Source: Escherichia phage ULINTec6
Sequence record: MZ997840.1
Direction: 5' to 3' (one strand)
Length of the DNA stretch: 44,728 nt
How positions within the stretch are numbered: position 1 is the first letter of the stretch; each line of letters opens with the position of its first letter. The notes beneath the pieces were generated by a model, which saw only the letters and a program-made list of their open reading frames with translations, did no database searches and was not told the DNA's origin. Of this stretch, positions 6,404 to 21,159 are shown one piece after another. Both the position numbers and the translations under genes were made by a program.

Positions 6404-7557
6404 ATGGCTATTATTAATAACATCCCATGTCCTCAATGTCAGAAGAATGGACACGATAAATCAGGCAACCACCTTATGATATTCGAGGATGGTGCTGGGT
6501 ACTGTAACCGTGGTCACTTCCATGATAATGGCAGACCTTACTACCATAAGCCTGAAGGGGGCATCGAGATAACCGAGTTGCCTATTACTGGCAATATCAA
6601 ATATACACCTTCCCAGTTTAAAGAGATGGAGAAGGAAGGGAAGATTAGCGACCCTAAGCTACGCGCCATCGCACTTGGTGGTATGCGTATGAAAGACCGT
6701 TGGGAGGTTATGAATGAGCAAGAAAGGGCAGACCAAGAAACAGAGTGGAAACTTGATGTTGAATGGTTCCTCACGCTTAAGCGTAAGAATCTTGTTTCCC
6801 GACACATTCGCGGCGACATTTGCGCATTGTATGATGTACGGGTCGGACACGATGAAGAAGGTAGAGTCTCACGGCATTACTATCCACGCTTCGAAAAAGG
6901 TGAGCTAGTAGGCGCTAAGTGTCGCACATTACCTAAAGACTTTAAGTTTGGTCATTTAGGTAAACTATTTGGTATGCAAGATCTTTTCGGTATGAATACT
7001 TTGTCTCACGTGTTAGACAAGGGAAGACGAAAGGATTGCTTGCTTATTGTCGGCGGCGAACTGGATGCACTAGCAGCACAGCAAATGCTCCTTGATTCTG
7101 CCAAGGGTACTAAGTGGGAAGGCCAGCCTTACCATGTATGGTCTGTCAATAAAGGTGAGTCTTGCCTTGAAGAGATAGTACAGAACCGTGAACACATCGC
7201 CCAATTTAAGAAGATTATATGGGGTTTTGATGGAGATGAGGTAGGGCAGAAGCAGAATCAGCAAGCGGCTCGCCTGTTTCCTGGCAAATCCTATATCCTT
7301 GAGTACCCTTCTGGTTGCAAAGATGCCAACAAGGCATTGATGGCTGGCAAGGCTAAAGAGTTTGTTGATGCATGGTTTAATGCCAAGTCATCTGATGAAG
7401 TCTTTGGTAGCCAGATTAAATCTATCGCATCTCAAAGGGATAAGCTCAAGGCTGCACGTCCAGAGCAAGGACTATCATGGCCTTGGCCTAAGCTGAACAA
7501 GGTAACGCTAGGTATTCGTAAGAACCAACTTATCATTGTAGGCGCAGGCTCTGGCGT
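6404..7557 (+). CDS. Primase-helicase (T7 gene 4 family), exon 1: zinc-ribbon, TOPRIM primase and start of the helicase P-loop (GAGSGV)
   Basis: IPCPQCQKNGHDKSGNHL...YCNRGHFH zinc ribbon and LLIVGGELDALA / FDGDEVGQ / CKDANKALM TOPRIM motifs match T7 gp4; the reading frame hits a stop 7 codons after GAGSGV. Confidence 0.85.
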
Positions 7558-8344
7558 TAACATTAGCGCCGCCATGTAGTAATACATGGGCAATAATCGT
7601 GTGAACTCAGGGGAAGACTAGAACAGTTAATCCTGAGCCAAGCTAGGCACACCTCAAATTCAAAGGAGGTGTTATGCAATTTAAAGAAGTACCAGATCAC
7701 AGTAATTATATTTGTTATGAGAATGGCACGGTTGTTAATCGTAAGACTGGAAAGGTCTTGAAAGAAGATACAACTAACCGAGGTTATAAGCGGATTACAG
7801 TAAGCAAGGGCAACAAGGTAACACGTTGGAGTGTGCACCGTTTAGTTGCTTTACTGTTTATCCCTAACCCTCATAATTATGAAACTGTTAATCACATATC
7901 GGGAGATAAGACGGATAACTCTGTTAGTAATCTTGAGTGGATGAGCCAAGAACAGAACCAAGCCCATGCTAAATATACAGGACTGTGTCCTAAAGGTGAG
8001 GCTGTTGGCACTAATAAGTTCAAAGAGGCAACTATTCAGCAAGTGTGCAAGCTAATAGAGAAAGGTTTATCTCGCGGTGAAATTATGAAAGCAACGAGCA
8101 TCTCTAAAGCAACCTTTGATGACATTCGTAGAAGGAAGACTTGGAAGCACGTATCTTGTTCATATAAATGGTGACAATCTGGTGTGCCTAGAAGGTGCAA
8201 CGACTATCCCGAAAGGGAGTACAGCCAAGCGGCTGGAAGCGCACGACACCCATCGTGGGTGATGATATAGTCTGGTCTATATGGGGACATATAGCAGTTC
8301 ATAAGAGAACGGGCGTGGCTTAGCGAACCACGTCGAACATAACG
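7558..8344 (+). mobile_element. Putative self-splicing group I intron (787 nt) interrupting the helicase Walker A motif, with an HNH homing endonuclease ORF in the P6 loop
   Basis: Exon end GGCGU 7553-7557 pairs with GCGCC 7566-7570 (P1, U-G at splice site); P-like CTCAGG 7606-7611 pairs with Q-like AATCCTGAG 7629-7637; R-like GTGCAACGACTATC 8195-8208 and S-like GATGATATAGTCTGG 8261-8275 form P7 (GACTA/TAGTC); intron ends with G 8344; splicing restores GAGSGVGKTEF. Confidence 0.75.
7674..8174 (+). CDS. Intron-encoded HNH homing endonuclease (166 aa)
   Basis: HNH motif VHRLVALLFIPNP...VNHISGDKTDNSVSNLEWMSQEQN; own RBS AAAGGAGGTG; C-terminal helix-turn-helix-like region. Confidence 0.85.
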   Translation: MQFKEVPDHSNYICYENGTVVNRKTGKVLKEDTTNRGYKRITVSKGNKVTRWSVHRLVALLFIPNPHNYETVNHISGDKTDNSVSNLEWMSQEQNQAHAKYTGLCPKGEAVGTNKFKEATIQQVCKLIEKGLSRGEIMKATSISKATFDDIRRRKTWKHVSCSYKW

Positions 8345-9170
8345 AGGTAAGACTGAGTTCCTCCGCGAAGTGGTTAAACACCTCATTGAAGAGCACGGTG
8401 AATCTGTAGGCATCATTTCTACAGAAGACCCGATGGTCAAGGTGTCCCGTGCTTTTATCGGTAAGTGGATTGATAAGCGCATTGAGTTACCGCCAACCAA
8501 TGACCCGAAAGAAGACGGATACCGTGAGGTGTTCGACTACACCGAGGAAGAAGCTAACGCTGCCATTGATTATGTGGCTGATACAGGAAAGCTATTTGTG
8601 GCCGACCTAGAAGGCGACTATTCTATGGAGAAGGTAGAGCAAACTTGCCTAGAGTTTGAGGCTATGGGCATTTCTAATATCATCATTGATAACTTAACGG
8701 GGATTAAATTAGATGAGCGTGCTTTTGGTGGGAAGGTTGGTGCACTTGATGAATGCGTCAAACGAATTGGTACTATCAAAGACCGACATGCGGTTACGAT
8801 TTTCCTTGTCTCTCACCTTACACGTCCTCCGGCAAACCGTACCCAACACGAAGAAGGTGGCGAAGTTATCCTTTCTGACTTCCGAGGCTCAGGCGCTATC
8901 GGATTCTGGGCATCTTACGCCTTGGGGATTGAGCGTAATACAAGAGCTGAAACGCTTGATGAAAGGACTACCACGTACATCTCGTGTGTCAAAGACCGCG
9001 ATCAAGGTGTGTGGACTGGCACTAAAGTGAAACTTAAAGGGGATATGACCACAGGTAGGTTATTGGAATGGGAAGATCGTGTTTCTAGATTTGACACAGG
9101 TATACCTAAGGAGCAAAGTGTACCTGATGAAAACACAGGAGAGTTGAATGAAGAAACTTCAGAGTTTTGA
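8345..9170 (+). CDS. Primase-helicase exon 2: remainder of the helicase domain, beginning (A)GKTEFLREV...
   Basis: In-frame upstream extension of the 8370 ORF reads GKTEFLREVVKHL, the second half of the Walker A motif; DnaB-family blocks LVSHLTRP and ILSDFRGSGAIGF match T7 gp4 helicase; no canonical start codon of its own. Confidence 0.8.
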
Positions 9171-9639
9171 GGAAGCAGGATATGTCGTCAAGGAAGACGG
9201 CACGATCTTAAACCCAAAGGGTTTAGTCAGAAAACCATCCTTCGCAGGTAAGAATGTTAAATACTATGTAGTATCTTGGAGGGATAAACATTCTAAGAAA
9301 ACAATCATAGATTTAGTTCACAGATTGGTTGCTAAGAAGTACATACCTAATCCACATGGTTTACCAGAAGTTCATCATAAAGACTTTAATCCTCTTAATT
9401 GTCATAAGGATAATTTGGAATGGACAGATGGGAAAACCAATTGTGAGTATAGTTATTCCAGGGTAGAGGCTGCGCTTGCACGAAGTGCTACCTTACTCTC
9501 ACCTGATGGGGTTAAGCATGAGGTATTTAATGTTCGTAAGTTCTGCCGTGAACATAGCCTCAATCCACCTAGCATATTTGAAGTGCTTAGTGGTAAGCGT
9601 AAATCACACAAAGGATGGACTATTTACCGGACACTATAG
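9148..9639 (+). CDS. Free-standing HNH homing endonuclease (163 aa)
   Basis: HNH motif VHRLVAKKYIPNP...VHHKDFNPLNCHKDNLEW; GGAGAG RBS; overlaps the helicase stop; the last codons are encoded by the phage promoter at 9622-9644. Confidence 0.8.
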   Translation: MKKLQSFEEAGYVVKEDGTILNPKGLVRKPSFAGKNVKYYVVSWRDKHSKKTIIDLVHRLVAKKYIPNPHGLPEVHHKDFNPLNCHKDNLEWTDGKTNCEYSYSRVEAALARSATLLSPDGVKHEVFNVRKFCREHSLNPPSIFEVLSGKRKSHKGWTIYRTL

Positions 9640-11205: not shown

Positions 11206-11410
11206 ATTAAGCAAGGTTTGCTCTTGCGGTAAAGGCTATCGCAGTCGTATTGATGGTAAGTGTGGACATTGTAGGTCTAAGAAAGAGGCTGCTTTGTTTG
11301 ACAAGTACCACAATGAATTAGCCTATAACCACCCACATCTAACACCTAATTCTTTATTAGGACTTGGTTATAGGGCTAAATACTTTGGAGCAATCTATGA
11401 AATCAATTGA
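11192..11410 (+). CDS. Small Cys-rich (zinc-ribbon-like) protein
   Basis: CSCGKGYRSRIDGKCGHC motif; in-frame ATG 11192 with GAGG RBS preferred over the track start at 11165. Confidence 0.45.
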   Translation: MKTIKLSKVCSCGKGYRSRIDGKCGHCRSKKEAALFDKYHNELAYNHPHLTPNSLLGLGYRAKYFGAIYEIN

Positions 11411-13943
11411 TTGGAAGAAGGAAGCAGAAGGCCGTATTCTAGTGATGGATGCGGAAGCTAAAGGCCTCCTTGATGCTATCCGATATGGACACCGCGAAGA
11501 TGTGCATATCATTTGCTGTATGGACTTGCTTACTACCGAGGAGTTCCTCTTCTTCGACCCATATGAGATGCGTGACCCTGAAGCAAGAGAGCGTCTCAAG
11601 GAGTGGGAAGGACACCAAGACGGTGATTTGGTTGACGGTGTTAACTTTCTGAAGTACTGTGAAGCTATTGTGTCACAGAACTTCCTAGGGTACGATGGGC
11701 TTCTCTTTGAGAAAGCATTCCCTGACATCTGGAAGGGCTTTAACTACACCGAGAGGCGCGGCAAGGGCAGACTACGTGCTGACCTGTGCCCTGTTCGAGT
11801 CATGGATACGCTGGTCATGAGTCGCCTATTAAACCCCGATAGACGCCTTCCTCCGCAAGCATATGCCAAAGGTATGGGTAACGTCGCCCCTCACTCAATT
11901 GAGGCGCACGGCATCCGTATAGGCCGCTATAAACCGGAGAACGAGGACTGGTCTAAACTAACTGACCACATGGTTCACCGTGTACGTGAGGACGTGGCGA
12001 TTGGTCGTGACTTGTTCCTCTGGCTCTTTAACGGGGAATGGATGGAGCACAAACGCCGTGGCGTGAATAAACGCACTGGCCTAGGCATTGAGACAGCCTT
12101 CCACATGGAGTCCATTGTGGCGCTGGAGATGAGCCGTCAGGCAGAGCGTGGATTCCGTCTGGATATTGACAAAGCACTAGCGCGATGCGAAGAACTGGAC
12201 GCTAAGATTGATGAGACAGTCGCAGCGTTCCGCCCTCACATGCCTATGCGTATCAAGTCTAAACCTTTTAAACCGGAAGAAAAGAATGAAGTATGCCAAC
12301 GCGCAAATGAGTATGGAGCTAGCAACAATATACCTACTGTCCTTGACCCCTCACACTTTCTTCATGCCGAGAGACGAGGAGATCGCAAGACAGTATGGAG
12401 TGTCACTACTAAGTCTGGTGATTGGTCGGCTAGTGTCAAGAAAGACTTTCCTCACCTTAGAGGAAACCGTAATGACACGCCAAGTATCAAGTGGATTGGC
12501 GCTTACTCGCCTGTTACTTTCGAAGAGATTCCCTTGGGTAACAGGGATACAGTTAAGCAAGTGCTCTATGATTATGGGTGGAAAGGTGTTGAATTTAACG
12601 ATACCGAGCAAGCGCATCTGGATGAGTATGGAGTGTTACCCAAACCTTGGAGTGGGAAGATAAATGAAAAGTCCCTTACTTTATGGCAAGAGAGAGCCGC
12701 ACGTGAAGGTAAAACAGTCCCTGATTGGTGCTTGGGTATCGCTGCATGGTACATACTCGTATCCCGTCGTGGTACGATCCTTAACCGTGGTGACGTTGAA
12801 GCCTTCGACCAGAAGGGGGTGTGGCCTTCGCAAGCTGGTGTACGAAAGTGTCGCGGCCTTGTACCTGTAGCATTTAACAAGGAGTTAGGAATCAATGCGC
12901 AGCAATACTATGAGAGGTATGGGTGTTGGCCTACGTCTGACAAGGATGACGGGGAGTGGCGTGTTCCAGCTATTGCTATTAGTATTGGTACTTCTACGTT
13001 CCGTATGCGTCATCGTAACGTGGTTAATATTCCTGCCCGTGGTTTGTATCCTTTACGTGATTTATTCATAGCAGGTAAAGGTAAGCTAATCCTTGGTTGT
13101 GATGGCGCTGGTCTTGAACTACGTGTACTATCTCACTTCATGAATGACCCTGAGTATCAAGATATTGTACTGCATGGTGATATACATACTCATAACCAGA
13201 TGAAGGCTGGTCTTCCCAAGCGTGACATGGCGAAGACATTTATATATGCCTTCCTATATGGGTCTGGTATAGCTAACCTTGCAGCAGTATGCGGTGTTAC
13301 TGAGGAAGAAATGAAGGAAGTTGTGGCAAGATTTGAGATTGAACTACCATCTCTTGCACGTCTTCGTGAGAATGTTATCGCACAAGGTAACAAGTTTGGC
13401 TATCTACAAGCACCTGATGGGCATTGGGGTCGCATCCGTATGTCTGGTGGTGAACTTAAAGAGCACACTATGCTTAACGTATTGCTCCAGATGACTGGCT
13501 CTCTGTGTATGAAATACGCATTGGTCAGAGCGTTTGCGGTGATGCGCAAGGAAGGTGTGGCTCTAGATAGTATGGGAAACCCTTGCGGTGTGGCTAACGT
13601 GCACGATGAAATCCAAATGGAAGTTCCTGAAGATGAGGTCTTGTATCTCAACTATGACTTGCCTTTCACCTTAGAAGGGTTCGAAACAGAGAAGGCTGCT
13701 GTGAAAGCAGTGTTCGATGCAGAGGAGAAACGTGTTCATGTTGATTCCGAAGGGCGCATGTGGTCTGCTGCAAATCTCATTAGCGTTGATGCTGATGCTG
13801 GTGTACTTCATTGCCAGCGTCGTTATCACCGTGCAGGACATATCATTGCCGATGCAATGACTTGGGCTGGTTATTATTTGAAGATGCGTTGTCCGATGGC
13901 AGGTGAGTATAAGATTGGTGCAAGCTGGAAGGAAACACACTGA
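11397..13943 (+). CDS. DNA polymerase (family A, T7 gene 5-like) with 3'-5' exonuclease domain
   Basis: Motif B-like RDMAKTFIYAFLYGSG, motif C-like VHDEIQMEV, N-terminal exonuclease motif LVMDAEAKGL; start set to ATG 11397 after GGAG RBS. Confidence 0.93.
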   Translation: MKSIDWKKEAEGRILVMDAEAKGLLDAIRYGHREDVHIICCMDLLTTEEFLFFDPYEMRDPEARERLKEWEGHQDGDLVDGVNFLKYCEAIVSQNFLGYDGLLFEKAFPDIWKGFNYTERRGKGRLRADLCPVRVMDTLVMSRLLNPDRRLPPQAYAKGMGNVAPHSIEAHGIRIGRYKPENEDWSKLTDHMVHRVREDVAIGRDLFLWLFNGEWMEHKRRGVNKRTGLGIETAFHMESIVALEMSRQAERGFRLDIDKALARCEELDAKIDETVAAFRPHMPMRIKSKPFKPEEKNEVCQRANEYGASNNIPTVLDPSHFLHAERRGDRKTVWSVTTKSGDWSASVKKDFPHLRGNRNDTPSIKWIGAYSPVTFEEIPLGNRDTVKQVLYDYGWKGVEFNDTEQAHLDEYGVLPKPWSGKINEKSLTLWQERAAREGKTVPDWCLGIAAWYILVSRRGTILNRGDVEAFDQKGVWPSQAGVRKCRGLVPVAFNKELGINAQQYYERYGCWPTSDKDDGEWRVPAIAISIGTSTFRMRHRNVVNIPARGLYPLRDLFIAGKGKLILGCDGAGLELRVLSHFMNDPEYQDIVLHGDIHTHNQMKAGLPKRDMAKTFIYAFLYGSGIANLAAVCGVTEEEMKEVVARFEIELPSLARLRENVIAQGNKFGYLQAPDGHWGRIRMSGGELKEHTMLNVLLQMTGSLCMKYALVRAFAVMRKEGVALDSMGNPCGVANVHDEIQMEVPEDEVLYLNYDLPFTLEGFETEKAAVKAVFDAEEKRVHVDSEGRMWSAANLISVDADAGVLHCQRRYHRAGHIIADAMTWAGYYLKMRCPMAGEYKIGASWKETH

Positions 13944-14041
13944 TGGACAGGCTTGATATTGTTTGCTTATTCTTTACCTTCTTTCTTTCTTATATTCCTT
14001 ATGCTTGCTTGCTATGGAAGTATGCGATTAGATATACCTGA
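13943..14041 (+). CDS. Tiny hydrophobic ORF (32 aa)
   Basis: Hand translation; start overlaps the DNAP stop; speculative. Confidence 0.2.
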   Translation: MDRLDIVCLFFTFFLSYIPYACLLWKYAIRYT

Positions 14042-14062
14042 TGAAGAGGAGGGTTACGATTG

Positions 14063-14161
14063 ATGCAGACATCTTTTATCATTCTTGGGACCATATTATT
14101 TATGGTAGTATTCTGGTCTTTCTCTGGCATTGACCCAGATTGTGATGGTAACTACGACTGA
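14063..14161 (+). CDS. Tiny hydrophobic ORF (32 aa)
   Basis: GAGGAGGG RBS upstream; hand translation; speculative. Confidence 0.25.
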   Translation: MQTSFIILGTILFMVVFWSFSGIDPDCDGNYD

Positions 14162-14229
14162 GTTATACTCAAGGTCACTTACGAGTGGCCTTTATGAATA
14201 ACTTATTCCTACTTATTTTGTCTAACATG

Positions 14230-14252
14230 ATTTACTGGACACTATAGAAGGA
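14230..14252 (+). promoter_or_regulatory. Phage RNAP promoter (ATTTACTGGACACTATAGAAGGA)
   Basis: Full consensus match. Confidence 0.8.
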
Positions 14253-14316
14253 AAGCCTAGGTAATCTAGGTTTATAAGGTAGTATAGGTAATTAAGTAAA
14301 TATAGGAGATATAAAT

Positions 14317-14694
14317 ATGTCTATGGTAACTACTCTGGTATTCGTGGCTCAATACTTTCGTGGTCTGGCTAATAAGTTCAAGTCCAAGGCCATCAAAGCT
14401 ATTGAGGCTCGCATCGAAGCAGTACAGGCAGAGCAAGTTAAAGTTGAAGAACATCGTAGTTCTCAAATGATTGACTGCCACAACCGATACTATGTATCTC
14501 GTGATGACCTTAATGCACGCCAAGTCAAAGAGGTTGAAGATATGATGGCACGTCACCAGCAAGAGCGTGACAGCCTGAAAGCTGAATTTGAAGAGAACAA
14601 GGCATCCATTGCCCTTGTACATCAAGCTGCATCTGACAGTCTGAAGAAAGAGATTGTTATGCTGGAAATCGAACTGGATAACCTGACCAAATAA
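14317..14694 (+). CDS. Hypothetical coiled-coil protein (125 aa)
   Basis: ORF track; AGGAG RBS. Confidence 0.5.
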   Translation: MSMVTTLVFVAQYFRGLANKFKSKAIKAIEARIEAVQAEQVKVEEHRSSQMIDCHNRYYVSRDDLNARQVKEVEDMMARHQQERDSLKAEFEENKASIALVHQAASDSLKKEIVMLEIELDNLTK

Positions 14695-14700
14695 GGAGTT

Positions 14701-15000
14701 ATGATGGAAGAAGTAATTCAAGCTAAACATGTAGGTATCATCTTTCGTGATCTAGAGCAGCGTAAAGTTGCAGGTCATACTCGTCTGGCTAAAGAGGAAG
14801 ACACCGCAATCACTACTGTAGAACAAGCAGACGCCTATCGTGGGCCAGAGTTCACTCAAGGTGAAACTTGTCACCAATTGAGCCTGTCACTTTGTGACAC
14901 TATGGCTATTGTAAATGTGCAAGAAGTCGAAGAAGGTGAGTGTGTCAGTTACATCTACCCTTTAGATACTATTGCACGCATTAAGGTAATCCATAAGTAA
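14701..15000 (+). CDS. Hypothetical protein (99 aa)
   Basis: ORF track; AAGGAG RBS. Confidence 0.5.
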   Translation: MMEEVIQAKHVGIIFRDLEQRKVAGHTRLAKEEDTAITTVEQADAYRGPEFTQGETCHQLSLSLCDTMAIVNVQEVEEGECVSYIYPLDTIARIKVIHK

Positions 15001-15021
15001 TTACTGGACACTATAGAACAA
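14999..15021 (+). promoter_or_regulatory. Phage RNAP promoter (AATTACTGGACACTATAGAACAA)
   Basis: Consensus match. Confidence 0.75.
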
Positions 15022-15162
15022 TAGGTCGGCTTAGTTCGGCCTATGATTGTAAAGTGTTGAACCTTATTGTGCATCTTGCACAACCCGATACCATATCGGG
15101 CTTTCTAGTGAGTACATGCTTGTGCTCAGTACAAAGCTAACTGACAATAGGAGACTAAATAA

Positions 15163-15969
15163 ATGGCACGTGGTGATTTTGATTTTGGTGCTTCCGTATC
15201 TAAAGCTGAAGGTAAAGTTTTTAAGAATCCAGAAGTAGGTGATCATGAAGCAGTAATCTCTGGCATCATTCATGTTGGTTCCTTCCAAGACATCTTTAAG
15301 AAAGGTAATACCACTGAAGTTAAGAAGCCAGCAAACTTTGTTCTGGTTAAGATTGTCCTGATGGGTGACGATGACAAGAATGAAGATGATTCTCGCATGG
15401 AACAATGGATGGCTGTGCCTCTGAAGTCTGGTGATAAGGCAACACTGACTAAGTTCCTGAATGCAGTTGACCCTAAAGAGTTGCTGGGTGGCTTCGACGA
15501 TTTCATTGGTGAATGCCTGACTGCAACGATGGTTGGTTCTGGTGACAAGAATGACGATGGCTCATTCAAGTATGTTAACTGGAAGGGGTTTGGTGGCATG
15601 CCGGACAAACTGAAGAAACTTGTCATTGCTCAGGTTGAAGAAGAGGGTCTGTCTATGACAGGTCACATCACCTTCGACAAGCTGACCAAAGAAATCCTTG
15701 ATGACATCCCAGCTAACTTGGTGCGTCAATACTTCCTGAACGAGACTCCTCGTGGTAAGAACCTGTCTGTTGCTGGTTCTCACGTAGAGGCAATCATTAA
15801 AGCTGCTCGTGAAGAAGACCCAGAGTGGAAGAAGGCTAAGAAGAAAGATGAGGAAGATGCTACCCCAGCTAATCGTAAGTCTCTGGACACTGGTGAGTCT
15901 GTTCCACAGGAAGTGCCGGAAGCAGATAATGCACCTGCACCGGAAATGGATGAAGACGCGGAATACTAA
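15163..15969 (+). CDS. Putative single-stranded DNA-binding protein (acidic C-terminal tail ending in an aromatic residue)
   Basis: 268 aa; C-terminus ...PEMDEDAEY is like the acidic, aromatic-terminated tail of T7 gp2.5; function inferred only from this feature and context. Confidence 0.4.
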   Translation: MARGDFDFGASVSKAEGKVFKNPEVGDHEAVISGIIHVGSFQDIFKKGNTTEVKKPANFVLVKIVLMGDDDKNEDDSRMEQWMAVPLKSGDKATLTKFLNAVDPKELLGGFDDFIGECLTATMVGSGDKNDDGSFKYVNWKGFGGMPDKLKKLVIAQVEEEGLSMTGHITFDKLTKEILDDIPANLVRQYFLNETPRGKNLSVAGSHVEAIIKAAREEDPEWKKAKKKDEEDATPANRKSLDTGESVPQEVPEADNAPAPEMDEDAEY

Positions 15970-15978
15970 GGAGGGCTG

Positions 15979-16197
15979 ATGAAAGTACAAATAGTAACCC
16001 TGCACTGCAAGAAAGGCATCACAACTCTCGGCGGTGGCACTTTCCACTCCTTCTCTGAAGGGGAGATTTATGCTGACCTGCACTACATCTGGCGCGACGG
16101 ACAGCACGTGGTGAACTATAGCGACCCTGCGACTGGTAAACGCCACGGCGTGTCGCTTCCGGCGCACGACATTGCGCAGGTGAACACAGTTTTATAA
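15979..16197 (+). CDS. Hypothetical protein (72 aa)
   Basis: ORF track; GGAGGG RBS. Confidence 0.45.
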   Translation: MKVQIVTLHCKKGITTLGGGTFHSFSEGEIYADLHYIWRDGQHVVNYSDPATGKRHGVSLPAHDIAQVNTVL

Positions 16198-16198
16198 A

Positions 16199-16214
16199 GT
16201 CTCACACGTGAGAC
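16199..16214. repeat. Palindrome variant GTCTCACACGTGAGAC (copy 5), just upstream of a phage promoter
   Basis: Read directly. Confidence 0.7.
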
Positions 16215-16229
16215 AACTAGGTGTCCGGT

Positions 16230-16252
16230 ATTTACTGGACACTATAGAAGAG
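16230..16252 (+). promoter_or_regulatory. Phage RNAP promoter (ATTTACTGGACACTATAGAAGAG)
   Basis: Full consensus match. Confidence 0.8.
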
Positions 16253-16302
16253 AAGAATTTTAATCGGCGATAATGCCATAACCAACAAAAGGAGAATTTA
16301 AT

Positions 16303-16674
16303 ATGTTCGCTATTGAAACTATCGTAAACCGTGTTGTTAAAGGTGCTGCTCTGGTATCCGTTGAGTCTTTCATTATCGTCGATGAAGTTGGCTCTCTGGT
16401 AGCTGGTACTAAGGCCTATGATACCCGTGAAGAGGCGCAGGCTAAGATTGATAGCATGGGTAACTTCGCTGCTGGTCTGGAGTTTGCTCGTGCTTGCTTC
16501 CCTGAGCAGGCTGACAAAGCCCAGATCGGTAAGGCTAACATCGTAGCTGAATACCTGGATTGGATTGCTGCTGGTAAACCAGTGAAAGAAGTTAAGGCTA
16601 CTGAAGAAGCTGAAGCTCCGGCAGCAGAAGTGTCTGCACCGGAAGCTCCGGTTAGCGAAGAGGAAGAGTTTTGA
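16303..16674 (+). CDS. Hypothetical protein with acidic C-terminal tail (...SEEEEF)
   Basis: ORF track; AAGGAG RBS; C-terminal acidic tail ending in Phe, as in T7-type SSB tails. Confidence 0.55.
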   Translation: MFAIETIVNRVVKGAALVSVESFIIVDEVGSLVAGTKAYDTREEAQAKIDSMGNFAAGLEFARACFPEQADKAQIGKANIVAEYLDWIAAGKPVKEVKATEEAEAPAAEVSAPEAPVSEEEEF

Positions 16675-16732
16675 TAATAGCAGGTGTTGCCTCTGTTAGT
16701 CCTAGTTGACTATCACGCTCACCTCATCTAAT

Positions 16733-16766
16733 GCCCTGTCTGCCTTAGTGTAGGCAGGGTCTTTTG
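16733..16766 (+). terminator. Terminator-like hairpin with U-tract (ccctgtctgcc..ggcaggg TCTTTT)
   Basis: Imperfect GC-rich stem followed by tcttttg, downstream of the 16303 ORF. Confidence 0.4.
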
Positions 16767-16791
16767 CGTAATAGTTATTGGAGAATGAATT

Positions 16792-17097
16792 ATGCCGACT
16801 ATTAGATCTCGTTTAGTAGCAGACTATGTTTATGGTCGTGACTTAAAGTTAATGCAAGATTATTTTAAAGTAATTATCTTGCTGGATGGAGAGGTATTTC
16901 ACACTAAAACATTCACCCTACCTGAGTTGTTTGATTTAGGTTATTGGGGTTATACTTATCAGGCCATAGCAGACAAGGTGCTACTCAGTGTGTTAGAGGA
17001 GTGGCCTACATGCGACCAAACTTCGACTTCGGAGCTACAGTATCGGAAGACAATAATCTCATCCTGTGGCCAACTGAAGGTAATAGAATCGCTTTAA
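16792..17097 (+). CDS. Hypothetical protein (101 aa) overlapping the exonuclease start
   Basis: ORF track; GGAGA RBS; the 88-nt out-of-frame overlap with the next gene lowers confidence. Confidence 0.3.
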   Translation: MPTIRSRLVADYVYGRDLKLMQDYFKVIILLDGEVFHTKTFTLPELFDLGYWGYTYQAIADKVLLSVLEEWPTCDQTSTSELQYRKTIISSCGQLKVIESL

Positions 17098-18038
17098 TAG
17101 ATGCTGATATGTTACCTTACATCGTCGGGTACACTATCAGTGACATGACTTATGTGCGAGCCACAACTCGTGTTAAGTCGGGACAAGTCCCATCGATCAA
17201 AGATACACCTGAGTGTAAGCAAGCATGTGACCGTGTGAACTCCTTGCTTAACTCTTGGGTGTATGCAGCAGAGTGTGATGCAGCTAAGCTATTCATGACG
17301 AAATCAGAAGCTAACTTCCGTGTTCGCCTCGCCTTCACCAAGCCTTATAAGGGTCAACGTAAGACCGAGAAGCCTCCATTCTTCTATGAATTGCGAGAGC
17401 ATCTCTTAGAGGTTCACGGTGCAATCTTGGCAGATGGAGAGGAAGCAGACGACCTCATGAGTATCGCACAATGGGACAGCCACCGCCGCTTCCAGCAAGA
17501 TACAGGTAACGAGTTCCCTATCGGTAGTCCAGAGCATAAGGCATTCTCTGACACTTGCATCGTTTCCTTGGATAAGGATTTGATGATTGTCCCCGGTTGG
17601 CACCTACAGCCGGGTCAAGAGAAGAAGTGGGTAGAGCCTATGGGTTGGCTTGAGTTACGCCGCAAAGCTAATGGTCAAGTCAAAGACCTAAAAGGTGCTG
17701 GCCTCATGTTCCATTATGCACAGATGATTATTGGTGATGACATTGATAACTATGCTGGCATACCTAGTCGTGGTGCTAAGTACGCCTATGACCTTCTCAA
17801 AGACTGTAAGACAGAGAAAGAATTGTACATGGCAGTGCTTGGCGCTTACAAGGCTAAGTTCGGACATGGACAAGTTAAGATTAAGAATTACCGAGGTGGT
17901 TATCGTATCGGCAAAGCCTTTGACCTAATGCTTGAATGCGGTCGTCTTGCTCATATGGCAAGGTTCAAAGGGGATATATGGCGAGCCGATAAGAACCCAA
18001 TCTTGTGGGGAGATGATGCGGAATGGTTAGCAAATTAA
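17010..18038 (+). CDS. 5'-3' exonuclease (T7 gene 6 / FEN-like)
   Basis: Blocks ALIDADMLPY, EADD, SLDKDL and IIGDDIDNYAGIP parallel T7 gp6 (ILVMDGDWLVF, EGDD, SCDKDF, IKGDITDGYSGIA); start set to ATG 17010 after GAGGAG RBS. Confidence 0.85.
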   Translation: MRPNFDFGATVSEDNNLILWPTEGNRIALIDADMLPYIVGYTISDMTYVRATTRVKSGQVPSIKDTPECKQACDRVNSLLNSWVYAAECDAAKLFMTKSEANFRVRLAFTKPYKGQRKTEKPPFFYELREHLLEVHGAILADGEEADDLMSIAQWDSHRRFQQDTGNEFPIGSPEHKAFSDTCIVSLDKDLMIVPGWHLQPGQEKKWVEPMGWLELRRKANGQVKDLKGAGLMFHYAQMIIGDDIDNYAGIPSRGAKYAYDLLKDCKTEKELYMAVLGAYKAKFGHGQVKIKNYRGGYRIGKAFDLMLECGRLAHMARFKGDIWRADKNPILWGDDAEWLAN

Positions 18039-18436
18039 AAGCATCGGAGGTGGCAGCTTATAAGAAGGAATTGCTAGATAAGCAAGGATGGAAATGCCCT
18101 CTGTGTGGCGGCAGTCTCAAAGCTGTCACACCTGTAAACCGTGTACTTGACCATGACCATGAGACAGGATTCTGCCGTGCTGTTGTATGCCGAGGCTGCA
18201 ATGGTGCGGAAGGGAAGATTAAGGGTGTTATCTCTGGTTATGGCAAGGCGGGTAATAATCGTTACTTCCAGCTTCAATGGTTAGAGAGATTGTATGAATA
18301 CTGGAAGTTACATAGTACGCCTCAGACAGATAAGTTATATCACAAACATCAAACGGAGGCAGAGAAGCGCGAGGCTAAGAACCGTAAGGCACGCCTTGCT
18401 TATGCAAGAAAGAAGAAGGAGGTTAAAGTTGGGTAA
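18023..18436 (+). CDS. Endonuclease VII-type Holliday-junction resolvase
   Basis: CPLCGG...DHDHETGFCRAVVCRGCNGAEG zinc-binding/catalytic pattern typical of T4 endonuclease VII-family proteins. Confidence 0.75.
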   Translation: MVSKLKASEVAAYKKELLDKQGWKCPLCGGSLKAVTPVNRVLDHDHETGFCRAVVCRGCNGAEGKIKGVISGYGKAGNNRYFQLQWLERLYEYWKLHSTPQTDKLYHKHQTEAEKREAKNRKARLAYARKKKEVKVG

Positions 18437-20041: not shown

Positions 20042-20215
20042 ATGGAAGGTAAACTGTATAGAGGGTACTTCGGTAACTTATATAAAGTAAGCTCTCGCGG
20101 TTTTGTATTGACCTCTGATGATGAAGGTGCAATGTGGCACCTAAGTGCATATGGTTCTAACTTAGCACACTTTAAAGAGGCAATAGTCAAAGGTGTGATG
20201 AAGGAGGTGAAATGA
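20042..20215 (+). CDS. Hypothetical protein (57 aa)
   Basis: In-frame ATG within the track ORF 20024..20215; overlaps neighbours at both ends. Confidence 0.4.
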   Translation: MEGKLYRGYFGNLYKVSSRGFVLTSDDEGAMWHLSAYGSNLAHFKEAIVKGVMKEVK

Positions 20216-21159
20216 ACATCTTCCAATTCCTAGGTCTTCCAGAAGACCACCGCAATCATCCATTCATGCTGGTGAAGCATCGCGGTGAAGTTCCTGAGAA
20301 GAAACTTACTTTTCCATGTTATGCACAGGTGAAACGAGATGGAATATTCAGTGCTGTTGTGGTGCGCAATGATGGTGCTGTTGCCGTCTTTGGTCGTACT
20401 GGTAAGAAGCTCTCAAATGTTGAAGCCTTGGAAAAGACATTTAGTGTATTTCCTGTCGGGTTGTATCTTGGTGAGTTGCAATCTATGGCTGTTGATGTTT
20501 ATCTTGAAGCTCTGTCAGGAGTGGTAAACCCTAATCGTACAGAGCCACTTGACTTCATAGGCCAGCAGATTAAAGACAACCTGTATATCGACTTCTTCGA
20601 TATGTTAACTATTAAGGCATTCCATGATGGATTCACTGATGTTTCTTATCTCAAACGTTACGATGCTTTACATCGTCGTATCGGCACTCATCTTAGCGGG
20701 TGCAACGCTATCCTTCCTATCACTCCTTGCCATAATGAGCGAGAAGTTGAAGCGTTTGCGCAAGAGCAAATAGATGCAGGACGTGAGGGTGCTGTATTCA
20801 AACTGGACTGCGATTATGAAGCAGGACACAAAGGTTATCGTCAGACTAAAGAAGTCCGTAAGGTAACTTATGACCTTACTTGTATTGGCTTTGAAGAAGG
20901 TAAAGGTAAATACAAAGGTAAGGTAGCTAACCTCATTTTCAAGTGGAAAGGGGGCAAGACAATCAAAGCTATGCTCGGTAAAGGGTGGACTCATGCAGAT
21001 GCAGAACAGATGTTCCACGATATTAAACATGGCGGACGGTTGAATGTCATTGGTAAAATCTTTGAAGTCAAAGGTCTTCAGGATTCAAGCAAGGGCAACA
21101 TTCGTCTGCCCAAAGCGGGAGAATTAAGACATGACAAAGATGAACCAGATTTCTTTTGA
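20212..21159 (+). CDS. ATP-dependent DNA ligase
   Basis: Adenylation motif I AQVKRDGIF (KxDG); size similar to T7 ligase; GGAGGTG RBS. Confidence 0.85.
   Translation: MNIFQFLGLPEDHRNHPFMLVKHRGEVPEKKLTFPCYAQVKRDGIFSAVVVRNDGAVAVFGRTGKKLSNVEALEKTFSVFPVGLYLGELQSMAVDVYLEALSGVVNPNRTEPLDFIGQQIKDNLYIDFFDMLTIKAFHDGFTDVSYLKRYDALHRRIGTHLSGCNAILPITPCHNEREVEAFAQEQIDAGREGAVFKLDCDYEAGHKGYRQTKEVRKVTYDLTCIGFEEGKGKYKGKVANLIFKWKGGKTIKAMLGKGWTHADAEQMFHDIKHGGRLNVIGKIFEVKGLQDSSKGNIRLPKAGELRHDKDEPDFF

Follow-up and report, generated by a model that had tools for sequence, protein, structure and literature searches.

A Predicted Divergent Single-Stranded DNA-Binding Protein and an Acidic-Tailed Companion Protein in a K1-5-Like Coliphage

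The gp16–gp18 Region of Phage ULINTec6

Escherichia phage ULINTec6 (sequence record MZ997840.1) is a K1-5/K1E-like coliphage (Vectrevirus, Molineuxvirinae, Autographiviridae). The whole stretch of DNA that was analyzed, 44,728 nucleotides in length, is referred to here as the window. Within it, positions 14000–18100 have 93–95% identity with K1-5, K1E, ULINTec4 and others, and this region contains two genes whose products, named gp16 and gp18 after their K1-5 counterparts, both end in an acidic tail closed by an aromatic residue, in the style of proteins that bind single-stranded DNA (SSBs). The structural model and the features of its family indicate that gp16 is very probably the single-stranded DNA (ssDNA)-binding protein of this phage, with a divergent oligonucleotide/oligosaccharide-binding (OB) fold. 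For gp18, an accessory role in the replisome is proposed more tentatively.

A preliminary description of this DNA, made from the sequence alone, had pointed to two adjacent proteins with SSB-style, aromatic-ended acidic tails. Both open reading frames (ORFs) are present on the + strand where it placed them, with the C-termini that it gave, and each has a good Shine–Dalgarno sequence. They are separated by an ORF of 72 amino acids (aa), a palindrome and a phage promoter, and so are not strictly adjacent (Table 1). The precedent of phage T7, on which that description leaned, is valid: T7 gp2.5 ends in ...DGDF and gp4 in ...SNDTDF, and the tail of gp2.5 binds the helicase and a basic patch of the polymerase; stimulation of the gp6 exonuclease also requires this tail.

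Table 1. Features of the gp16–gp18 region and of related replication genes in the window
Feature	Position	Strand	Details
gp16-like protein	15163..15969	+	268 aa; ends ...APEMDEDAEY; K1-5 gp16 = SP6 gp18
gp16 N-terminal disordered peptide MARGDFDFGASVS	15163..15216	+	residues 1–18; motif F-[DN]-[FY]-G-[AG]-x-[VI]
gp16 disordered tail	15826..15966	+	residues 222–268: basic WKKAKKK, Pro/Ala-rich linker, tip P-A-P-E-M-D-E-D-A-E-Y
gp18-like protein	16303..16674	+	123 aa; ends ...APVSEEEEF; K1-5 gp18 = SP6_20
gp18 acidic tail	16579..16671	+	residues 93–123, 10 D/E, 2 K/R, ends S-E-E-E-E-F; predicted local distance difference test score (pLDDT) <50 at residues 98–123
Terminator-like hairpin	16733..16770	+	11-bp stem then CTTTTG, directly after the gp18 stop
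Candidate phage promoter	16230..16252	+	just 5′ of gp18; repeat families D1, D2, D3
Palindrome AGTCTCACACGTGAGACAA	16198–16216		precedes the gp18 promoter
72-aa ORF (K1-5 gp17)	15979..16197	+	phrog_5791; between gp16 and gp18
Candidate SP6/K1-5-type phage RNA polymerase promoter	15000..15019	+	upstream of gp16; 8-copy family ...ATTTACTGGACACTATAGAAG...
5′–3′ exonuclease	17010..18038	+	342 aa from ATG 17010; 5_3_exonuc match, K1-5 annotation; N-terminus MRPNFDFGATVSE
Family A DNA polymerase	11364..13943 (listed ORF; start probably ATG 11397)	+	DNA_pol_A match
Primase-helicase, C-terminal (helicase) part	8370..9170	+	DnaB_C match; ends ...ELNEETSEF
ATP-dependent DNA ligase	20212..21159	+	ligase domains; ends ...RHDKDEPDFF

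gp16 as a Candidate ssDNA-Binding Protein

From its N-terminus to its C-terminus, gp16 comprises a disordered peptide with a short motif, an OB core (approximately residues 19–146), a helical subdomain (from approximately residue 147 to approximately residues 221–230) and an acidic tail, which has a net charge of −7. An AlphaFold2 model was built on 28 homologues, and has a mean pLDDT of 79 and a pLDDT of about 90 in the core. Its strands (residues 26–47, 50–53, 57–66 and 80–86) are followed by helices (94–102 and 111–114) and by two further strands (118–129 and 135–144), and this order of elements, β1–3, helix, β4–5, is that of an OB fold. Residues 1–18 (pLDDT 31–38) and 230–254 (pLDDT below 50) are the disordered parts of the model. 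When the model was compared with the PDB using Foldseek, the top matches were OB-fold ssDNA binders only: PrgE (E = 2e-4), followed by RPA subunits (E = 6e-3 to 3e-2) and, after these, by SSBs and PriB. Comparison with BFVD gave uncharacterised podovirus proteins, DUF669 proteins (E about 2e-5) and one annotated SSB.

The C-termini of the gp16 family point in the same direction as the fold. An exhaustive search with the gp16 profile gave 78 representatives (50% clustering), of which the nearer members end in ...EEF or ...EEY and the distant members in ...DLDDDIPF, ...DDEIPF, ...DDEVPF or ...DDEIPY; one subgroup of relatives ends in PPGFxYDPATNSF. The sequence of E. coli SSB, which was verified, ends in ...PPMDFDDDIPF. 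The tail of the gp16 family can be summarized as P-A-P-x-[ML]-D-[ED]-[DE]-x-[EP]-[YF], which has the register of the E. coli tip F-D-D-D-I-P-F; the tip of gp16 itself, M-D-E-D-A-E-Y, shares the register of the bacterial D-D-D-I-P-F but differs in its residues.

The position of the gene has also been kept. The gene order DNA polymerase, gp16-like protein, 5′–3′ exonuclease, endonuclease VII is found in Molineuxvirinae, in Colwellvirinae and in phiKMV, and the gp16-like gene holds this position in unclassified metagenomic relatives as well. In phiKMV, the protein concerned is gp21 (349 aa, hypothetical; comparison sequence L018, 6043–7092), which matches the gp16-family profile with E = 2e-29; its tail is long, rich in Pro, Ala and Val, and non-acidic, and phages with a gp21-type protein may use another docking solution. 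Among the related genomes that have a gp16-like gene no other SSB candidate is annotated, and a search of the literature found no SSB assignment for SP6, K1-5 or phiKMV-like phages. The only PHROGs match of gp16 reported here, phrog_862, has no function annotated, and all 215 homologues of gp16 and all 212 homologues of gp18 in GenBank are labelled "hypothetical". The suggestion that the 268-aa protein is an SSB thus gains computational support from the OB-fold model, the SSB-like fold matches and the conserved acidic, aromatic-ended tail.

The gp16 gene also contains an internal direct repeat (15359–15388 and 15530–15559), which encodes two similar acidic loops, GDDDKNEDDS (residues 68–77) and GSGDKNDDGS (residues 125–134). 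These are located in the two β-hairpin loops of the predicted OB fold, in which D71, N73, D75, S77 and G133 are near-invariant.

Acidic, Aromatic-Ended Tails

A tail was scored as positive if its last eight residues include at least four D/E and no K/R, and its terminal residue is F, Y or W. Only gp16 and gp18 pass among the 51 non-nested + strand ORFs in the window, and shuffling of residues gives an expectation of 0.04 such tails per genome, compared with the two observed (P for two or more = 5e-4). Other proteins of the window have an acidic end but no aromatic last residue, e.g., ...YEGEEEE (an Ocr-like ORF) and ...EEETDDFI.

Conservation is a stronger argument than the shuffle null for these tails being real. 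A terminal Y or F after acidic residues is present in 44 of 46 members of the gp16 family, down to 35% identity. In the near set of the gp18 family all 120 members end in EEEF; in the far set the terminal residue is F or Y in 105 of 119, with a sub-terminal F in a further 12; and 98% of the unique tails of the family have a terminal Phe. In both families the linkers drift in sequence and in length, and the tip is retained. On their sequences, the gp16 tip and the gp18 tip are different motifs: the end of gp18 is simply E-E-E-E-F, and gp16 shares with the helicase the pattern hydrophobic(−7)-D(−6)-[DE]-[DE]-x-E-[FY].

Uliginvirus and phiKMV depart from this pattern. In Uliginvirus (Pseudomonas phages), the Phe is sub-terminal in gp16 (...EEQEFGE) and in gp18 (...EESFEG) alike. 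A three-way co-variation that included the helicase was considered and rejected, as the Uliginvirus helicases keep a terminal Y (except in phage uligo). The other case is phiKMV, which is without gp18 and in which the helicase and the gp16 homologue are both without acidic tips.

The preliminary description spoke of two proteins with such tails. This stands for gp16 and gp18 and is incomplete, since tips of a similar kind are found on the primase-helicase and, probably, on the ligase. The primase-helicase has an acidic stretch and an F or Y end in every relative examined (e.g., ULINTec4 ...FDDEQEF; AS51 ...VDDTQEF). The ligase has a terminal D-[FY], five residues past motif VI (RxDK), in most SP6-like and Colwellvirinae phages, although not in phiKMV, which makes it a possible fourth replisome protein with a docking tip. 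The presence of tips on the primase-helicase and probably on the ligase therefore argues for a general docking code rather than for a single mimic: by analogy with T7, the acidic [F/Y] tail looks like a docking signal common to several replisome proteins, of which gp18 would be one more client. The presumed receptor, by the same analogy, is the DNA polymerase, which has 34% identity to T7 gp5 across the palm and fingers. SP6-like polymerases have a conserved basic loop, W-G-R-I-R-[KR]-x-G-x-K, that is different from the basic patch of the T7 enzyme.

The primase-helicase gene of the window is interrupted by an ORF for an HNH_3 and HTH_7 endonuclease (successive ORFs at 6404–7579, 7674–8174 and 8370–9170), and another HNH_3 ORF lies at 9148–9639. 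In ULINTec4, the primase-helicase is a single coding sequence of 662 aa and it is the DNA polymerase that an endonuclease interrupts, which suggests mobility of homing endonucleases among near-identical phages.

gp18: Fold, Expression and Distribution

gp18 consists of a small α/β domain (residues 1–92) and a disordered acidic tail. Its AlphaFold2 model, for which 65 sequences were used, has a β-hairpin at residues 3–26 and helices at residues 42–51, 55–65 and 71–89, with a pLDDT of about 88. Foldseek found no significant match for this model in the PDB (best E = 0.9); no match to gp18 was found in Pfam or NCBIfam; the best hit of a profile search of PDB sequences, with E = 0.06, looks spurious; and the only PHROGs match is phrog_4429. 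The residues that are invariant in the family include D27, F61, K72, K77 and N79. Two candidate relationships were tried and rejected: similarity to T7 gp5.3, gp5.5, gp5.7 or gp5.9 (hmmsearch and hhalign, all with E above 0.2), and descent as a paralogue of the C-terminal half of gp16 (hhalign probability about 0.1). The folded part has a net charge of −4 and the whole protein has an isoelectric point (pI) of 4.3; because its folded domain is acidic, gp18 is unlikely to be a second SSB.

The hairpin that follows the gene has a predicted RNA folding energy of −18.3 kcal/mol (z = −3.7), which was equalled by none of 200 shuffles. Having its own promoter and a terminator-like hairpin, gp18 thus forms a self-contained promoter–gene–terminator unit, and these signals suggest high expression.

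The distribution of gp18 among genera is nearly the same as that of gp16 (212 and 215 phage records, respectively). Its gene belongs to the syntenic core of two subfamilies, in phages whose hosts include Vibrio, Pseudomonas, Marinomonas, Erwinia and Ralstonia. No gp18 is present at the more distant SSB-like loci whose tips are I-P-F. In a metagenomic phage of the T7 supergroup, a 184-aa ORF of the Gad2 family (PF26128) lies between the gp18-like gene and the exonuclease gene (L063, 9432–9986; L064, 1768–2322), and this ORF also ends in an acidic, aromatic-tipped sequence, ...KEDKYEF.

An N-Terminal Peptide Shared by gp16 and the Exonuclease

A second short motif is located at the opposite end of gp16. 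The pattern F[DN][FALY]G[AD] is found, across all six frames of the window, at the N-termini of gp16 and of the 5′–3′ exonuclease only (in the latter, the stretch that bears the motif is 17010–17051). Alignment of the gp16 family shows F6, G9 and A10 to be invariant. Both N-termini bear the motif in essentially all related phages (L005–L012, L019–L057, L059, L060 and L063), and it varies in parallel in the two proteins: Vectrevirus-like phages have FDFGA, Colwellvirinae have FDYGG, L059 has YNYGA together with FNYG, and L060 has FNYNSGLE together with FDVFQGLD. It is absent from the gp16 homologue and from the exonuclease of phiKMV.

That the motif is a DNA repeat or a promoter element can be rejected, as the codons of the two copies differ synonymously; this implies selection at the level of the peptide. 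The idea that gp18 is the obligatory receptor of the peptide is weakened by L060, in which the motif co-varies without a gp18 gene between the two genes, although this contig has a length of only 2.5 kb. FDFGA may serve both proteins as a peptide for docking or cooperativity. The motif would be explained by a partner that the two proteins have in common, or by both peptides binding to the core of gp16, in the manner of the N-terminus of T4 gp32.

Flanking Elements

The palindrome that precedes the gp18 promoter belongs to a family of perfect-palindrome elements, TGTCTCACATGTGAGACA, with eight copies of 19 nucleotides each, at 290, 5995, 6186, 7002, 9834, 11050, 16198 and 32791. Several of these adjoin phage promoters on the upstream side, as at gp18, and the element may serve in RNA processing, as a terminator or as an operator. 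On the other side of gp16, a 99-aa ORF (14701–15000) corresponds to K1-5 gp15.5 and to phrog_8057; gp17 also matches phrog_8057, weakly (E = 0.004), and gp15.5 and gp17 appear to be distant paralogues.

A Model for the Replisome, and Its Alternatives

The model that follows is inferred with respect to the binding of ssDNA by gp16, the identity of the receptor of the tails and any role of gp18. The OB-fold core of gp16 would coat ssDNA, while its tip, P-x-M-D-E-D-x-E-Y, would dock on other replication proteins, likely the DNA polymerase and the helicase if T7 is a guide. gp18, rather than being a second SSB, would join the same replisome by its acidic, Phe-tipped tail as an accessory or adaptor subunit. 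The C-terminal [D/E]-[F/Y] of the primase-helicase, and probably that of the ligase, would be part of the same docking code. Taken as a single statement, that gp16 is the replicative SSB, gp18 a tail-docked accessory and C-terminal [D/E]-[F/Y] their shared code is, on balance, mildly probable. Its second component, considered separately, that gp18 is a replisome accessory docked by its tail, has a chance that falls a little short of even, and is favoured over a gp18 that acts purely as a competitor or as a decoy directed at the host.

A number of observations count against this interpretation. With regard to gp16, the core is itself net acidic (−10); the TM-scores (template-modelling scores) of the Foldseek matches are modest (0.25–0.48), and T7 gp2.5 (1JE5) is not in the top 50 of them; neither gp16 nor its 58 relatives match the SSB family of Pfam (PF00436) or, in hmmscan with E up to 5, DUF669 (PF05037); single-sequence and profile searches of PDB sequences found no solved structure that matches gp16; no sequence link between gp16 and T7 gp2.5 was found (hhalign probability 0.07; none by hmmsearch); and the nearest curated family, NCBIfam NF046043, is named for a "replication initiation protein". 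With regard to gp18, nothing in the sequence, profile and PDB fold searches links its folded domain to an activity, and the gp18-like domain of the metagenomic phage L059 (84 aa) is without a tail, so the tail is not always required. With regard to the docking code, the tips of gp16 and gp18 have shifted jointly in a single clade, Uliginvirus, which amounts to one event in evolution, and the front basic patch of T7 polymerase lies in a segment that is missing from SP6-like polymerases.

A more far-reaching form of the model is speculative and rather doubtful. In this form, the replisomes of SP6-like and Colwellvirinae phages would be wired by a two-part peptide code, consisting of C-terminal acidic-[F/Y] tips (on the helicase, gp16, gp18 and the ligase) and the N-terminal F-D-F/Y-G-A/G peptide common to the SSB and the exonuclease, with gp18 as the hub. 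This hub would join the exonuclease, the SSB and similar clients to the polymerase or the helicase, and would thus organise the replisome much as sliding clamps and PCNA-interacting peptide (PIP) or other clamp-binding motifs do in cells. Alternatively, the N-terminal peptide could be a cooperativity element like that of T4 gp32, which the exonuclease has copied so as to ride on SSB-coated DNA.

The first rival explanation, close to what the preliminary description proposed for the second protein, is that gp18 is a tail mimic or regulator, whose tail competes with those of the SSB and the helicase for the basic site of the polymerase and which would be an exchange factor or a negative regulator rather than a subunit that stays bound. 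The tail type that gp18 has in common with gp16 and the helicase would suit a competitor; so would a folded domain that, being acidic, is unlikely to bind DNA, and the strong, independent transcription unit, which suggests abundance. Furthermore, in T7 the tails of gp4 and gp2.5 have been described as sharing patches on the polymerase, and competition of tails for one site is plausible. Nevertheless, the tip of gp18 is without the hydrophobic(−7)-D(−6) signature of those that it would have to imitate, a homologue exists with no tail at all, and the 92-aa domain is conserved, with invariant D27, K72, K77 and N79, which therefore implies a function beyond the presentation of a peptide. That gp18 is a competitor alone is, for these reasons, unlikely.

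What the partners of host SSB recognise is a tail that is acidic and ends in Phe. A second possibility looks to the host rather than to the replisome: gp18 could be an acidic decoy of the C-terminus of host SSB, or of DNA, that sequesters enzymes interacting with host SSB (such as ExoI, RecQ and PriA), a nuclease or a defence system. The acidity of the whole protein (pI 4.3), the signals for high expression and the location of the gene just upstream of that for the exonuclease, as for T7 gene 5.9, would all be in keeping with such a decoy. Yet gp18 has no similarity to gp5.9, gp5.5 or gp5.7, and its tip lacks the I-P-F of host SSB. Moreover, the tail shifts together with that of gp16 in Uliginvirus, and gp18 is a syntenic core gene in phages of many host genera, unlike anti-defence genes with their fast turnover. 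A decoy is, overall, quite improbable.

The third explanation concerns gp16, which, instead of being an SSB, might act in replication initiation or be primase-like, or might mainly be a single-strand annealing/recombination protein. A point in its favour is the name of the nearest curated family. gp16 matches NF046043 ("phage replication initiation protein, NGO0469 family") over residues 20–107 with E = 9e-4 and 18.9 bits (cutoff 75), the same family is matched by 55 of 58 distant relatives (best E = 3e-54, some far above the cutoff), and the gp16 profile retrieves true NF046043 members in an exhaustive search. Judged by these profiles, gp16 is a remote relative of NF046043 at the superfamily level, below the cutoff for membership. 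The label itself, however, originated in 2007 in an in-silico annotation of the Neisseria prophage gene NGO0469, which relied on resemblance to a nanovirus Rep (26% identity over 109 aa) and to a phage "primase" (32% over 87 aa); a paper of 2025 restates it as a prediction, and a search of the literature found no experiment behind the family name. In addition, bona fide members of the family (relatives P0201, P0207, P0215, P0239 and P0242) carry SSB-type ...D-D-E-[IV]-P-F tips. Because of the weak annotation of 2007, these tips and the homology to the OB-fold model, the name is probably a misnomer for an SSB family. The predicted fold of gp16 is an OB fold, there are no Rep, primase or ATPase motifs, and the phage already encodes a Toprim primase-helicase. 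As for annealing, T7 gp2.5 likewise carries the annotation of an annealing protein. Altogether, this third explanation is very unlikely.

Lastly, that the tails are generic acidic low-complexity ends whose resemblance is coincidental is scarcely credible: acidic, disordered ends are common, including in other window proteins, yet only 0.04 tails of this type are expected where two are seen, the last residue is a near-invariant aromatic over hundreds of sequences with drifting linkers, and tips change jointly at the level of clades (gp16 and gp18 only, in Uliginvirus) and lack acidity in phiKMV.

Significance and Comparison with Known Systems

Phages of the SP6, K1-5 and K1E type, which have found use in phage therapy and from which SP6 RNA polymerase comes, have no annotated SSB. 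The assignment of gp16 as an SSB would fill this gap in the replication set of two subfamilies of Autographiviridae, would extend by homology to phiKMV gp21, and marks the name of NF046043 as probably wrong. Acidic-tailed phage SSBs and contacts within the replisome that are mediated by tails were already known; what appears to be new is a predicted form of SSB that is unannotated and unrelated in sequence, a tail-bearing gp18 without a fold match, and a second shared motif.

Among known proteins, bacterial SSBs resemble gp16 in having an OB fold (the Foldseek matches being weak) and in the register of the tip, hydrophobic(−7)-D(−6)-acidic-acidic-x-x-aromatic; distant members of the gp16 family even end in a literal ...DDDIPF. 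gp16 itself differs in that its tip ends in E-Y and not in I-P-F, and in that it has no Pfam SSB match. The best match among solved structures is PrgE of pCF10 (8S4S, 8S4T; E = 2e-4, probability 1.0, target-normalised TM-score 0.46–0.48), an OB-fold protein that was solved bound to DNA. In contrast to gp16, PrgE is plasmid-encoded and comprises 130 aa; it has 12–14% identity to gp16, and only the OB part is covered. A third point of comparison is the DUF669/N4 SSB group, whose members are phage SSBs with a highly diverged OB fold and an acidic C-terminal tail and occur in phages without a known SSB [see Kazlauskas et al. 2016, PMC4889955]. The gp16 family fits this description, and DUF669 proteins match the gp16 model, although there is no profile match.

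The closest parallel in organization is T7, which also belongs to Autographiviridae. T7 gp2.5 and, as predicted, gp16 both combine an OB core with an acidic, aromatic-ended tail, and in both phages the helicase has a tail of the same kind (gp2.5 ...DGDF and gp4 ...DTDF in T7; gp16 ...DAEY and helicase ...TSEF in the window). They differ in that the gp16 gene lies between the genes for the polymerase and the exonuclease, which is not the position of gene 2.5; in that gp16 has an additional helical subdomain and the N-terminal FDFGA peptide, and no detectable homology to gp2.5; and in that no counterpart of gp18 was found among the T7 proteins compared. T7 is the textbook example of a minimal replisome. 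Its sister lineage would have a like logic of docking by tails, built on an unrelated SSB core, to which gp18, as a further protein with a tail, and another shared motif, at the N-terminus, are added. Comparison of T7 with SP6-like phages can show how short linear motifs organise replisomes.

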